Positions 27,469-32,636 of a stretch of 64,000 nt of DNA are shown here, piece after piece. The first letter of the stretch is position 1. Each line of letters begins with the position of its first letter. The translations under genes and the position numbers were made by a program. This stretch comes from Candidatus Entotheonellaceae bacterium (GTDB lineage: Bacteria > Tectomicrobia > Entotheonellia > Entotheonellales > Entotheonellaceae): the NCBI GenBank assembly GCA_965238075.1, contig OZ250173.1:1312001-1376000 (forward strand), read 5' to 3'. Under the pieces are notes generated by a model that saw only the letters and a program-made list of their open reading frames with translations, was not told the origin of the DNA and ran no database searches.

Positions 27469-28730
27469 ATGAGCAGCGATACCGCAATCGTTGACGATCC
27501 ATTCGCCATTGCCCGGTGGCAGTTGGACGCCGTCGCTGAGCATCTGAAACTGGGTGACGGCATGCGCCGCATCCTGCGCACCCCAAATCGGAGCTGACCG
27601 TCACCTTCCCGGTGATCATGGATGATGGGCGCACGGAGGTATTTACCGGGCACCGAGTGCAACACAATGTCGCCCGCGGCCAGGCCAAGGGCGGTATTCG
27701 CTACTCGCCATACGTCACCCTCAACGAGATGCGCGCCCTGTCCATGTGGATGACCTGGAAATGTGCCGTCGTGAATCTGCCCTTTGGCGGTGCGAAGGGT
27801 GGGGTCTGTTGCAACACCAAGGAGATGTCGCTGCGCGAAATCGAGCGCCTCACGCGGCGCTATGCCACCGAAATTGCCTTCTTGATCGGCCCGGCCAGCG
27901 ACATCCCAGCCCCCGACATGTATACCGACTCTCGCGTCATGGCTTGGATGATGGATACGTAGAGTATGCACAAAGGGTACTCCGTCCCTGGCGTGGTGAC
28001 GGGGAAACCCATCAGCGTCGGCGGCTCCTTGGGGCGTTCGGAGGCGACGGGACGTGGCTGCGTGTATGCCATCGTCAACGTGGCGAAGCAGGTGGGTATC
28101 AACCTCGATGGGGCAACCGTGGCGGTGCAGGGTTTTGGCAATGCCGGCTCGGTCGTGGTCAGACTCCTCGCGCAACTGGGATGTCGGATCATCGCGGTGA
28201 GCGATTCAAACGGCGGCATCTACGATGAACACGGGCTCGATGCAGAAGCCCTGCAGGCCTGCAAGCGGGGGACGGGCTCTGTCAGAAATTATTCGTCAGG
28301 CGACCGCCTCTCCAATGAGGCGCTTCTCACCCTCCCCTGCGACATTTTGGTGCCAGCCGCTCTGGAAAATCAGCTCACCGAGCGGATTGCGCCGAAGGTC
28401 CGGAGCAAGCTGATCGCCGAGGCGGCAAATGGTCCGACCACGCCGGCAGCAGACGCGATTTTTCAAGATCGTGGCGTGACGGTGGTTCCCGACATTTTGG
28501 CGAATGCCGGCGGGGTCACGGTCTCCTACTTCGAGTGGGTTCAGAATCTGCAGGAATTTCACTGGAAGGAGGAGCAGGTCAATCAACAACTCAAGGACGT
28601 AATGGATGCGAGTTGCGGTCAGGTTATGGCGCTAGCCGAGCGGGAGCACGCGAGTTTGCGCACCGCGGCATACATCTTGGCGGTTGATCGCGTCGTCAAC
28701 GCGATTCAAGACCGGGGTATTTATCCATAA
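27469..28730 (+). pseudogene. Glu/Leu/Phe/Val dehydrogenase (glutamate dehydrogenase-like) pseudogene
   Basis: KGGIRY, FGGAKGG, DIPAPD, QGFGNAG, EAANGPTT, ANAGGVTVSYFEW; frameshift near 27590 and in-frame TAG at 27960 (MDT*SM for MDTYSM). Confidence 0.9.
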
Positions 28731-28832
28731 GAGGGTGTCTTGTTTAACGGTCGTTAAATGAGAGGGCGCCAAGCCGGTCTAAAGGACAAAAACAGGTCTA
28801 GCGGTCCGCACCGACCGGCAGTACCACGCTTC

Positions 28833-30062
28833 TCAGATCACGCCCTCGTCCTGCAGCGTGGCGAGTTCGGCATCGGACAGGCCGAGCAGGCCGCCGAGGA
28901 TGTCCTGGTTGTGGGCGCCAACGGCGGGGCCGGGCCAGGTGGTGGCGCCGGGGGTGGCGCTGAGATGGGGGGTAAGGGCGGGGATGCGCAGGGGTTGGCC
29001 GTTGACTTCGACCTGCTGGAACAGGCCGCGGGCGTGGAAATGGGGGTCCTGGAGCATATCCGCGACGCTGTAGATCGGGCCGGCGGGGACGGAAGCGTCG
29101 GCGAGTTGTGCCAGCACCTCGGCGGCGGCGAGGCTGGCGGTCCAGGCGGCGATGGCGGCGTCGATTTCGCGTTCGTGCGCCACGCGGCCGGCGTTTTCGG
29201 CGAAGCGCGGGTCCTCGGCCATGTCGGCCCGCCCGGCGGCGCGCATCAGGCGTTGAAAGATGGAATTGCCGTTGCCGCCGATGACCACGTAGGCGCCGTC
29301 GCGGCAGGCGTAGGTATTGGTCGGCACGATACCGGTCAGGGTCGAGCCGGAAGGCTGCCGCACCAGTCCGGCGCCGTCGTATTCCGGCACCACGGCTTCC
29401 AGCATGTTGAAGACCGATTCGTAAATGGCCACGTCCACCACCTGCCCGTCGCCGCCCGCCGGCTTGCCGCGTTGGATGTATGCCAGCAGGATGCCGAGCA
29501 CGGCGTGCAGTCCGGCCAGCGTGTCGCCCAGGCTCAGGTTGGGCCGCACCGGTGCCTCGCCTGGAAAGCCGTTCAGGTAGCGAAAACCGCCCACCCCTTC
29601 GCACACCGAGGCATAGCCGGGCCGTTCGGCGTACGGCCCGGTCTGGCCGTATCCCGAGACGCGCGCGTAGATCAGCCCCGGATTCGTCGTCTTGACTTCC
29701 TCGGGTCCGAGGCCCCATTTCTCCATGGTGCCGGGACGGAAATTCTCGATCAGCACGTCCACGCGGTCCGCCAATTGGCGGGCGATGCCGCGCCCCTTGT
29801 CGGTCTGCAGATTCAGCGTGATGCTCTTCTTGTTGCGCCCCAGGCTGCGCCACCAAAACGACGTGCCGTTGTCGTCGAGCAGCCGCCAGCCGCGAATCGG
29901 ATCGCCCTTGCCCGGCGGCTCGACCTTGATCACCTCGGCGCCGAAGTATCCGAGGACGCAGCCGGCGAACGGCCCCGCCAAGAGCTGGCCCAATTCGAGC
30001 ACCCGCACGCCGTCCAGCGGTCGAGCGGTCGCAGGGTTCGGTTCCGAAGCAGAAGAGGGCAT
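28833..30062 (-). CDS. CaiB/BaiF family III CoA-transferase
   Basis: PLDGVRVLELGQLLAGPF, VIKVEPPGKGD, RNKKS, ENFRPG, SGYGQTGPY. Confidence 0.95.
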   Translation of the reverse strand: MPSSASEPNPATARPLDGVRVLELGQLLAGPFAGCVLGYFGAEVIKVEPPGKGDPIRGWRLLDDNGTSFWWRSLGRNKKSITLNLQTDKGRGIARQLADRVDVLIENFRPGTMEKWGLGPEEVKTTNPGLIYARVSGYGQTGPYAERPGYASVCEGVGGFRYLNGFPGEAPVRPNLSLGDTLAGLHAVLGILLAYIQRGKPAGGDGQVVDVAIYESVFNMLEAVVPEYDGAGLVRQPSGSTLTGIVPTNTYACRDGAYVVIGGNGNSIFQRLMRAAGRADMAEDPRFAENAGRVAHEREIDAAIAAWTASLAAAEVLAQLADASVPAGPIYSVADMLQDPHFHARGLFQQVEVNGQPLRIPALTPHLSATPGATTWPGPAVGAHNQDILGGLLGLSDAELATLQDEGVI

Positions 30063-30097
30063 GGGGCACGCCTCCTTGGCATGTCGGGCCAGGGAAT

Positions 30098-30535
30098 TCA
30101 GTCTTGCACGTGGATGACGGTGACCTCGAAGACGATGTGCTGACCGGCCAGAGGATGGTTCAGGTCCACCGTCACCGCGGTGTCGTTAATGGCATGAATG
30201 CGATAGGGGATGATGCTGCCGTCCGGCCCCGGAAATTCGCCCTCGAAGCCGAGGTGCCGGGCCGAGGCGGGGAATTGCTCCTTGGAGAGTTCCTGGAAGG
30301 CCGCCGGGTCAATGCACCCGAACGCGTCGGCGGGCTTCAGCTCAAGCCGCACGGTGTCGCCAACGCCGAGACCTTCCACGCCCGTGTGCAGGCCGGGCGG
30401 CATGCGGGTGTGGCCGTGCACGTAAGTCCAGGTGCCGCTGTGTTGGGCCGAGTCGACCAGGGTGCCGTCGGCTAGGCACAGCGTGTAGTCGAGGCACACC
30501 GTCTTGCCGGCCTGCACCCGCTCGTTGCTGCTCAT
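30098..30535 (-). CDS. FKBP-type peptidyl-prolyl isomerase (SlyD-like, no His-rich tail)
   Basis: VCLDYTL..DGTLVDS..YVHGH..PPGL..VDLNHPLAGQHIVFEVTV. Confidence 0.9.
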   Translation of the reverse strand: MSSNERVQAGKTVCLDYTLCLADGTLVDSAQHSGTWTYVHGHTRMPPGLHTGVEGLGVGDTVRLELKPADAFGCIDPAAFQELSKEQFPASARHLGFEGEFPGPDGSIIPYRIHAINDTAVTVDLNHPLAGQHIVFEVTVIHVQD

Positions 30536-30894
30536 GACGCTTCGGGCATCCCCTTTTCCCGCCAGCCGATGAAGCCGCCGATCAGATAATGCACGTTGGT
30601 GTAACCCATCTGCTGCAAGGTCTGTCCTGCCAGGACAGCACGATTCTCGCCGCCTCAATGGGTCACGATGGGCGTGTTCTTGTCGGGGACGGTTTCCTCC
30701 ATGCGGCCCTCGATGAACCCCCGGGCCAGCCACGTCGCCTGCGGAATGTGGCCGTCGTCCCACTCGGCCCGCTCCCTGACGTCCACCACCACAACGCCCT
30801 CGCCCCCGTCCAGTTGGGCGCTGAGGTCGGTTTGGCTGAGGCCGGGCACGACGCGCCGGGCTGCCTCGATCATTTCTCGTCCTGTCATGGCCAT
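30532..30894 (-). CDS. Single-domain rhodanese, probable selenoprotein (UGA at active-site position)
   Basis: VVDVRERAEWDDGHIPQA..PIVTH-TGA-GGENRAVLAGQTLQQMGYTNVHYLIGGFIGW; read-through ends in an ATGA overlap with the PPIase start. Confidence 0.85.
30622..30638 (-). promoter_or_regulatory. Putative bacterial SECIS hairpin
   Basis: mRNA CUGUCCU-GGC-AGGACAG, stem begins 16 nt after the UGA, G-containing apical loop. Confidence 0.7.
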
Positions 30895-30914
30895 GCTGAG
30901 TTCTCCTGTAAATG

Positions 30915-30985
30915 CAGTGTCCAGTGGTTAGTGGCTAGTGAAATCTGGGTTTGCTGACCGCTAATCACTGGTCACCAGCCACTGA
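30915..30985. repeat. Inverted short heptamer-like tandem repeats (AGTGG.T / ACCA.T type)
   Basis: CAGTGTCCAGTGGTTAGTGGCTAGTG ... CTAATCACTGGTCACCAGCCACTG; related to 35210-35312. Confidence 0.55.
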
Positions 30986-30996
30986 TTTTTTCCGCC

Positions 30997-31746
30997 TCAA
31001 GCCAGGTTGCTGCCGCCGTCGAGCACCACCACCTGACCGGTAATCAGGTCGGCACGGATCAGGCCCATGACCAGATCGGCCACGTCTTCCGGCTGGCAGA
31101 CGTTCTTCAGAGGCGACCTCTCGGTGGCACCCTGCTTCACGGTCTCGTACTCCTCGCGGGCCTGCCACCAGCGGGTGTCGATGAAGCCGGGCGCGATGGA
31201 ATTGATGCGAATGGCCGGCCCCAGGGCGCGCGCCAGGGCAATGGTCATGGTGTTCAGTCCGGCCTTGGAGGCCAGATAGGGCACCGAGCTACCCACGCCG
31301 TATACCCCGGCCACGCTGGAGATATTGACCACCACGCCGCCGTCGCGCTCCAGGTGGGGCCGCGCCGCGCGGATGACGTAGAACGGGCCTTTAAGATTAA
31401 CGTCCAGAATCCTGTCCCAATCCTCGTCCTGCACCGCCTCCAGGTCGCCGTGCGGGATGAACGACGTCGCCCCGGCATTGTTGACCAGCACGTTCAAGCC
31501 GCCGAGGGTGTCGGCCACCTGCTGCACCATATTCCGCACGGCAGCGTCGTCACCCACGTCGCCCTTGACCGCCATGGCCCGCACGCCCGTTTCCCGCAGC
31601 GCCTCCGCGGTGGCCATCGCCTGCCCCTCCGAGCGCGAGTAATTCACCGCCACGTGGCAGCCCTCGTGCGCCAAGGCAAACGCGATCGCCCGACCGGCGC
31701 CAACGCCGCCGCCGGTAACGAGGGCGATCTTGTCTTTTACCTGCAT
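30997..31746 (-). CDS. Short-chain dehydrogenase/reductase
   Basis: VTGGGVGAG, VNNAG, YLASK, IAPGFIDT. Confidence 0.95.
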   Translation of the reverse strand: MQVKDKIALVTGGGVGAGRAIAFALAHEGCHVAVNYSRSEGQAMATAEALRETGVRAMAVKGDVGDDAAVRNMVQQVADTLGGLNVLVNNAGATSFIPHGDLEAVQDEDWDRILDVNLKGPFYVIRAARPHLERDGGVVVNISSVAGVYGVGSSVPYLASKAGLNTMTIALARALGPAIRINSIAPGFIDTRWWQAREEYETVKQGATERSPLKNVCQPEDVADLVMGLIRADLITGQVVVLDGGSNLA

Positions 31747-31882
31747 GCTCTCCTCCTGTGTGAATTATGGCATCGGTCGATCATGGCTACCGTCCTGACA
31801 GAGCGTTCAGTCTCGAGCGGCTGGGGTGTTTGGGGGTAGGCAGGCGGGGTGCGGCGGCCTGTGGAGCCGCCGCGGTCAGAGG

Positions 31883-32419
31883 TCAGGAATTCTCTTTCAG
31901 GAATAGGATGATCTTGCGGCGAATTTCGGAATCGTCTTGCTTGTAATACATGCGCACGCCGGGCACCCACGCCTGGGTGCTGGTGATCCAGACGTCGAGG
32001 GTACTGGAGTTCCAGATCATGCCGCGCAGAACGCCCAGAAAGGCTTCGGAATAGTTGTAACTTTCGACGGTGCCGGCCGGCCGGCCGTACACGCCGGTCA
32101 AGTTGGGGCCGAAGGGCGGCGCAATCGCCATGCGCTCACCAGCCAGACCGGCGACCTTGACACCGGCGGGCGTATCCGTCACGGCGTCGGGATGCAGGTC
32201 CATGGCCAGCCGCACGGCATGATGCAGCGGCAACGGGGCCGGTGCGTGCTCAGCAGCCTTAGCCCTCTCGACTTGCACGCCCACGAGGCCGTGACAGACG
32301 CCGCAATGCCTGTCATACAGCCCCTCCGCCTCTACCAATTCGGCGGCCAGGTCCTCGGCGAGCGCCGCCGGGGCCACGGCCAGTAGTGTGATAAGGACAA
32401 ATCCCAAGATGCGGGACAT
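31883..32419 (-). CDS. Class I c-type cytochrome (c2-like) with internal insertion
   Basis: Signal peptide, CGVCH, GPNLTGVYGRPAG, YNYSEA, VPGVRM. Confidence 0.85.
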   Translation of the reverse strand: MSRILGFVLITLLAVAPAALAEDLAAELVEAEGLYDRHCGVCHGLVGVQVERAKAAEHAPAPLPLHHAVRLAMDLHPDAVTDTPAGVKVAGLAGERMAIAPPFGPNLTGVYGRPAGTVESYNYSEAFLGVLRGMIWNSSTLDVWITSTQAWVPGVRMYYKQDDSEIRRKIILFLKENS

Positions 32420-32636
32420 ACGTTAACCTCCCTTGCCTGAACCTCAATTCGCTGTGCACATCGGGCTCTGAAATCGCCGGAAGTGTAGCACCGCGGAAAG
32501 GCCGTGCAAAGCCAAAAGTAACGGCTTGCGTTGAGACGGCGCCGCGTTGAGACGACGGGCGTTTATGATATAACAGGGCGACGGGTCGGCTTGGCGGCGG
32601 CCGGGTCGCATACCGTACACGAAGGAGGGGTTGGGC

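Follow-up and report, generated by a model that had tools for sequence, protein, structure and literature searches.

The window analysed here, a stretch of 64,000 nt (positions 1,312,001 to 1,376,000 of the forward strand of contig OZ250173.1), carries on its minus strand a rhodanese gene with an in-frame TGA, flanked by genes for an SDR-family oxidoreductase, an FKBP-type peptidyl-prolyl isomerase and a family III CoA-transferase. The features of the locus, in window positions, are the following:

28833..30062, minus strand: family III CoA-transferase gene, 35 nt downstream of the FKBP gene (Pfam CoA_transf_3, 404.6 bits)
30098..30535, minus strand: SlpA/FkpB-like FKBP peptidyl-prolyl isomerase gene, 145 aa, its ATG overlapping the rhodanese stop as ATGA
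30532..30894, minus strand: predicted Sec-rhodanese coding sequence, 120 residues with Sec as residue 80 and the terminal TGA at 30534..30532 (translated with TGA as U)
30622..30638, minus strand: SECIS-type hairpin CUGUCCU-GGC-AGGACAG, starting 16 nt after the UGA, its apical loop 23 nt from that codon
30655..30657, minus strand: internal UGA codon (predicted Sec) at the catalytic Cys column, in the active-site loop U-G-G-E-N-R
30903..30906, minus strand: GGAG motif read directly from the sequence, 8 nt upstream of the ATG at 30894, a putative ribosome-binding site
30997..31746, minus strand: SDR-family oxidoreductase gene, upstream of the rhodanese gene across a 102-nt spacer (Pfam adh_short_C2, 187.2 bits)

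The conventional open reading frame of the rhodanese gene starts at the ATG at 30894, runs for 79 codons to the TGA at 30657..30655 and ends in ...NTPIVTH. Past this TGA the frame stays open for 40 more codons (GGENRAVLAGQTLQQMGYTNVHYLIGGFIGWREKGMPEAS), up to the TGA at 30534..30532, which overlaps the ATG of the FKBP gene (30535..30533). An earlier note on this DNA had described the interrupted frame, its 40-codon continuation and the ATGA overlap with a PPIase gene, and all three are indeed present on the minus strand. When the internal TGA was read as U, residues 21–113 of the product matched positions 2–101 of the 102 positions of the Pfam Rhodanese profile (PF00581) with 70.3 bits (cut-off 22.2). 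Since the match spans nearly the whole profile across the TGA, the domain is complete only with read-through. The 120-residue product contains no Cys, so that its sole chalcogen nucleophile would be Sec80.

Upstream of the gene, the spacer that separates it from the end of the SDR gene holds an imperfect inverted repeat (30917–30984) with 20-nt arms at 30922–30941 and 30965–30984, which are 80% complementary and lie 23 nt apart; the repeat may serve as an operator or form a stem in RNA. Scanning of positions 28700–32500 for promoters and terminators returned no promoter-like site and two terminator-like sites, both intragenic and not above shuffle level.

The AlphaFold2 model of the read-through product, built on a 28-row alignment, reached a pLDDT of 96.2 and a pTM of 0.89, and placed residue 80 between strand 76–79 and helix 84–95. 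A Foldseek search with this model retrieved rhodaneses only (6mxv_A, TMq 0.91, 35% identity), and phmmer against solved structures gave the same protein (6mxv, 1.5e-36). Both the domain match above cut-off and the alpha/beta fold with a loop between strand and helix assign the product to the rhodaneses. If the TGA were instead a true stop, the gene would be a pseudogene, would contain an assembly error or would encode a 79-residue product, and the downstream frame would be untranslated. Against this stands the make-up of the 79-residue piece itself, from which the active-site loop is missing, as is the final third of the fold with its last strand-helix units.

A protein database search retained 126 relatives out of 143 candidates, and 120 of the 126 were listed. 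Among these listed matches, the best 35 (67–96% identity, 72–102 aa) all break off precisely after ...V[A/T]H, one step short of the catalytic column. That public protein sets offer only fragments for these 35 closest relatives among the matches listed is what a true stop would also produce. The full-length homologues among the matches listed have Cys at the catalytic column in 84 out of 84 cases, always within C-x-x-G-x-R. One further database entry of 76 aa (P0078) looks frame-shifted.

Exactly one in-frame TGA was found in each of 16 orthologous matches from 15 of the 61 genomes searched (host included), with identities down to 44%, and in all 16 the TGA occupies the identical alignment column. 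The 15 genomes comprise all six species of the genus, members of other genera in its family and members of one more family in the class; all of them fall within the 17 genomes of the class that were searched, where the other two (G007 and G016) contain Cys-type relatives only. Homologues without the TGA taken from species genomes (n = 51, a sample biased by the peptide patterns used in the scan) have Cys at the catalytic column in 50 cases and Gly in one. Downstream of the TGA, where the frame is intact in the orthologues, lie R85, L93, G97, Y98, G107 and W111, which are six of the 12 invariant columns of the 28-row alignment. Further, the TGA is read identically in six independent assemblies from the genus. 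Conservation on this scale, together with that agreement, argues so strongly against a true stop that we consider it scarcely credible.

The earlier note had placed the TGA where the catalytic Cys is expected and had proposed an alignment of homologues at this column; the alignment bears it out, with a Sec/Cys pair formed by the UGA of the 16 orthologues and the Cys of the 84 full-length homologues among the matches listed. The gene thus shows two of the marks by which a selenoprotein gene is recognized, a UGA aligned with the Cys of homologues and UGA-bearing orthologues with a conserved downstream frame. A maximum-likelihood tree, for which U was coded as C, united the 14 Sec rows (support 98/96) and divided them into two subclades, A and B; genome G010 has a copy of each. 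This topology is in keeping with one change from Cys to Sec and a later duplication.

The hairpin downstream of the UGA (CTGTCCT-GGC-AGGACAG, 30638..30622) consists of seven perfect pairs and a 3-nt loop, just as the earlier note had read it: a perfect 7-bp stem with a G-containing loop, 16 nt downstream. All 16 TGA orthologues keep the seven pairs, the GGC loop and the fixed 16-nt spacing. In the hairpin alignment 100% of the cells are paired, and one pair varies, being C-G in nine and U-A in four distinct rows. The U-A form occurs in the genus of the host and the C-G form elsewhere, and the exchange combines a nonsynonymous change (Val to Ala) with a synonymous change in a Gly codon. Covariation alone is thin, since it concerns a single pair and probably a single evolutionary event that separates this genus from all others. 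In addition, the third-codon positions within the hairpin are all invariant among proteins that are merely 45–50% identical.

This contrasted with the Cys- and Gly-type homologues (n = 52), none of which forms all seven pairs at the homologous place (best 6, mode 3). Seven of them encode the same LAGQT peptide and still lack the hairpin, and one Cys homologue (L025) spells the same ALAGQT peptide with other codons, again with no hairpin. A metagenome scan by the exact hairpin pattern matched at least 120 contigs. The 80 contigs examined were all members of the Sec-rhodanese family, with the TGA, the downstream frame and 7/7 pairs; their stems are all of the C-G form, with no mismatched combination. 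The pattern fixed 'GA' at the fourth codon of the loop, so that counts of Glu and Asp at this position in the metagenome set are not independent.

The free energy of folding was less telling. The 60 nt after the UGA gave a z-score of -0.54, and 51 of 200 shuffled sequences folded at least as well, a value that is unremarkable for G+C-rich sequence and was dropped as evidence. By itself this would sit well with a true stop, but the significance of the hairpin comes from its conservation and not from its energy. An extended lower stem, predicted in the genus of the host, is not kept in other genera and was rejected as part of the element. The hairpin resembles the SECIS of the Escherichia coli fdhF type in lying within the coding sequence, a short way 3' of the UGA, and in the G that starts a small apical loop; it differs in its tiny 3-nt GGC loop on a perfect 7-bp stem, with no conserved bulged U or lower stem across genera. 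The bacterial SECIS (bSECIS) criteria given in a figure legend of a 2026 review are a loop of 3–9 nt, a stem of 4–16 bp, a G in the first two loop positions, 16–37 nt from the UGA to the loop and a minimum free energy of -7.5 or lower (PMC13188914, Fig. 2 legend). The corresponding values here are a GGC loop, 7 bp, 23 nt and -8.3 kcal/mol for the bare hairpin, all within these ranges.

The host genome is a single contig of 3.35 Mb, and the earlier note had proposed a search of it for selA, selB, selC and selD. All four were found. Profile searches gave 606.7 bits for selA, 357.7 for selB and 318.8 for selD, each above its curated cut-off, and a tRNA-SeC with anticodon tca lies at contig positions 617194–617290. 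The selB and selA genes are adjacent on the minus strand (1025501–1028793) and selD is at 1156322–1157239; the tRNA-SeC gene is far from selB/selA. A search of the genome for a Sec-containing formate dehydrogenase (TIGR01553) returned only molybdopterin enzymes below the cut-off, with no internal stops, which indicates that the Sec machinery is not there for formate dehydrogenase.

Other selenoprotein genes were sought by a scan that combined three conditions: a TGA with open flanking frames, a perfect hairpin of 6–9 bp whose loop has a G at its first or second position, and a codon usage that favours one and the same frame over the other five before and after the TGA. The scan may miss genes with SECIS elements of other shapes. 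With GC3 as the coding filter 160 candidates were left, which was of no use, while the codon-usage filter left 14, the Sec-rhodanese included. Read with TGA as U, 12 of the other 13 match known selenoprotein families: GrdA, two GrdB-family proteins, two PrdB-like proteins, five of the UGSC family, MoeB and a two-domain rhodanese. Seven of the 12 exceed curated cut-offs, namely GrdA (206.6 bits, cut-off 130), the two GrdB-family proteins, Sec-MoeB (574 bits, cut-off 449) and three UGSC proteins. The thirteenth was a false candidate, TyrS running into EtfB. For the 12 that match, the T of the TGA lies at these contig positions (loci L113–L116 and L118–L125):

Plus strand: 190029, 601403, 1107559, 1188681, 2326031, 2436234, 2942591
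Minus strand: 2947866, 2668409, 2111094, 1388794, 1385377

Some of these candidates have features of their own. The Sec-MoeB candidate has an N-terminal Cys-rhodanese domain, and the second Sec-rhodanese is a two-domain protein of the 3-mercaptopyruvate sulfurtransferase type, with Y-U-Q-G-G-I-R. The UGSC-type candidate L113 (189693–191393; 566 aa in total) continues for about 450 codons after its TGA with a long unmatched C-terminal region, which may stem from a fusion or from running on into the gene that follows; it scored 89.4 bits against the UGSC model, under the cut-off of 125. With at least 12 further candidates besides the Sec-rhodanese, the genome is, on these predictions, selenoprotein-rich, and its Sec machinery is put to use.

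Reading of the UGA by a near-cognate Cys- or Trp-tRNA, with the hairpin serving only as a pause or read-through stimulator, would be in keeping with the Cys that the column tolerates in all homologues among the matches listed. However, a complete Sec machinery is encoded in the same genome, together with about a dozen selenoprotein gene candidates whose hairpins are much alike, mostly 3-nt G[G/U]N loops on stems of 6–9 bp. The hairpin of the rhodanese gene also fits the bSECIS model, and a lineage in need of Cys would simply keep TGC or TGT, as all the outgroups do. Decoding other than by Sec is thus very unlikely. We conclude that the rhodanese gene (30894..30532) is very probably a genuine selenoprotein gene, in which UGA codon 80 specifies Sec. 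By analogy with the established bacterial system, the hairpin would act as a SECIS element that brings SelB and Sec-tRNA(Sec) to a ribosome pausing at this codon; SelB, with GTP and Sec-tRNA(Sec), would bind the apical part of the hairpin and decode UGA-80.

The predicted active-site loop, U80-G-G-E-N-R85, has six residues with the nucleophile first, Sec in place of Cys, and ends in an Arg that is invariant in 28 of 28 alignment rows. A loop of six residues (C-X4-R) is typical of sulfurtransferase-type rhodaneses, and one of seven of the Cdc25/arsenate-reductase type. The fourth position of the loop is acidic in all 16 Sec orthologues (Glu in clade A, Asp in clade B), whereas it is Gly in 84 of 84 Cys relatives among the matches listed, which sets U-x-x-[E/D]-x-R against C-x-x-G-x-R. 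As the acidic residue is encoded by four different codons (GAG, GAA, GAC and GAT), it is under selection at the protein level.

In fold, in the six-residue loop and in its terminal Arg, the protein is like the Cys-containing single-domain rhodaneses and the rhodanese domain of MoeB (6mxv, GlpE 1gmx, PspE and the N-terminal domain of PRK08762); it is unlike them in having Sec for Cys, an acidic residue for the loop Gly and Ala for the Ser/Gly after the Arg. Selenocysteine rhodaneses as such are not new, as the earlier note had rightly stated. A "rhodanese-related sulfurtransferase" appeared in the Sargasso Sea selenoproteome in 2005 (PMC1088965), and the 2026 review catalogues five Sec-rhodanese forms with the motifs UxxS, UxxG, CxU, UxxG and UxxxxU (PMC13188914). 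To the extent that these sources describe them, the known forms share with the present protein the PF00581 domain, Sec at the catalytic loop position and a prediction from a Sec/Cys pair plus a bSECIS element (PMC1088965, PMC13188914), and a review form with the UxxG motif has the same single-domain COG0607/PspE-like size (PMC13188914).

The loop U-x-x-[E/D]-x-R nevertheless differs from all five forms of the review, although from forms 1, 2 and 4 it is set apart by the listed motifs only (PMC13188914). The UxxG motif of forms 2 and 4 is replaced by UGGE in the host and by Glu or Asp at the last position throughout the 16 orthologues. Form 3 (NF041203, LYCAU/CxU) gave 43.6 bits against a cut-off of 115, and the sequence reads T-H-U with no Cys. 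Likewise, form 5, TsoB (NF045694, UxxxxU), gave 26.1 bits against a cut-off of 805, and the protein has a single Sec. None of the NCBIfam selenoprotein and rhodanese models reached its cut-off. In the literature searched, no paper was found that names both Tectomicrobia and selenoprotein. The portions of the 2026 review considered here make no mention of Tectomicrobia or Entotheonella (PMC13188914). As far as its text was covered, the one Entotheonella paper that names selenocysteine reports SelA/SelB homologues in a gene cluster and nothing more. Judged by its sequence, the protein is therefore of a known kind, a Sec-rhodanese, and what is new is a member that lacks annotation and whose loop and partner are specific to its lineage.

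That partner is encoded by the FKBP gene, whose product matched Pfam FKBP_C with 35.7 bits (cut-off 21.1) and NCBIfam PRK15095 with 76.7 bits (cut-off 125). Its similarity to the SlpA/FkpB and SlyD FKBPs, which have a chaperone domain inserted in the flap, extends over the full length. The PPIase assignment of the earlier note stands, but the protein, called SlyD-like there, is nearer to SlpA/FkpB, with 5.8e-20 for residues 4–143 against PDB 2m2a (the E. coli FKBP-type 16 kDa PPIase) and 1.8e-16 for SlyD 8g01. It has no His-rich tail, and it has Cys14 at a position where E. coli SlpA has Leu. This Cys is invariant in 52 of 52 orthologues.

The pairing of the two genes is a property of clade A. 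Of the 11 clade-A genome loci with downstream sequence (in G011 the contig ends), 10 have the FKBP gene as the immediate downstream neighbour; the exception is G013, with no FKBP gene within 1.5 kb of its clade-A rhodanese. In metagenomes, 44 of the 50 clade-A loci that could be evaluated have it directly downstream, two of the 44 as partial matches. No FKBP gene was found beside clade-B rhodanese genes in 18 evaluable metagenome loci and four genome loci, nor beside Cys-form rhodanese genes in the six loci checked. To our knowledge, a pairing of an FKBP with a rhodanese has not been described.

A 4-nt overlap of start and stop occurs in all six species of the genus (ATGA in five, GTGA in one) and is confined to it, from which we infer translational coupling of rhodanese and FKBP within the genus. 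The coupling to the PPIase gene put forward in the earlier note thus holds up, on the overlap in the genus and the adjacency in 10 of 11 clade-A genome loci. Its inclusion of the CoA-transferase in the coupled unit does not: outside the six genomes of the genus, the rhodanese/FKBP pair is not accompanied by the SDR, the CoA-transferase or a cytochrome c-like gene. These genes belong to no conserved module, and the sister Sec clade lacks the SDR and CoA-transferase genes. Of the neighbourhood that the note had proposed to check for conservation, the FKBP pairing is therefore retained in clade A, and the SDR and CoA-transferase genes are not.

The clade-B loci of three genomes (L097, L098 and L099, in G010, G006 and G009) have the motif H-U-R-R-D-x-R. 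There, the rhodanese gene is divergent from a PNPOx-like gene and two acyl-CoA dehydrogenase genes, and an MMPL transporter gene lies on the other side. As a functional lead these PNPOx-like, acyl-CoA dehydrogenase and MMPL genes gave nothing.

With regard to function, the family to which the protein belongs suggests that Sec80 most likely carries sulfane sulfur or selenium, as an Se-S or Se-Se adduct, to an acceptor. The rhodanese would be co-expressed with the SlpA-like FKBP, a foldase/chaperone, and translationally coupled to it in the genus. The retained six-residue X4-R length and the invariant Arg of the loop are in accord with such sulfur transfer. On the other hand, the loop departs from C/U-x-x-G, and the chemistry may for this reason not be ordinary sulfur transfer. 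In that case Sec would be real but the protein might have a redox or reductase function or carry selenium, acting through a selenenyl-sulfide with an outside thiol, possibly Cys14 of the FKBP. Since the rhodanese has no Cys at all, a resolving thiol must come from outside. The strict division between U-x-x-[E/D]-x-R and C-x-x-G-x-R, as counted above among the matches listed, the selection on the acidic residue and the invariance of Cys14, at a position that is Leu in E. coli SlpA, all favour a function other than sulfur transfer; the conserved length and Arg of the loop, and a sister clade B that does without an adjacent FKBP, speak against it. We regard this alternative as improbable overall, though as one to be taken seriously.

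A more far-reaching proposal can be offered, which we hold to be doubtful and advance only tentatively. The proteins with U-x-x-[E/D]-x-R would constitute a distinct Sec-rhodanese subfamily, in which the change from Cys to Sec went together with that of the otherwise universal loop Gly to Glu or Asp, and one branch would have acquired a dedicated SlpA-like FKBP with an invariant Cys. Within the present sampling, such a subfamily may be confined to the lineage of 'Entotheonella'-labelled MAGs and many uncultured environmental relatives. As part of this proposal, the two proteins could form an Se/S relay via a selenenyl-sulfide between Sec80 and Cys14; or else the FKBP might serve as a dedicated chaperone, keeping hold of the nascent chain of 79 residues while Sec is slowly inserted.

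Because gene callers cut the protein at its Sec codon, this Sec-rhodanese is effectively invisible in public annotation, where the nearest 35 database clusters among the matches listed are fragments, of 72–79 aa; the metagenome contigs that carry the gene, at least 120, point to a widespread environmental selenoprotein. The conserved pairing with an FKBP provides a concrete candidate partner, and the split between Sec with an acidic loop and Cys with a Gly loop constitutes a natural experiment on what selenium does to rhodanese chemistry.
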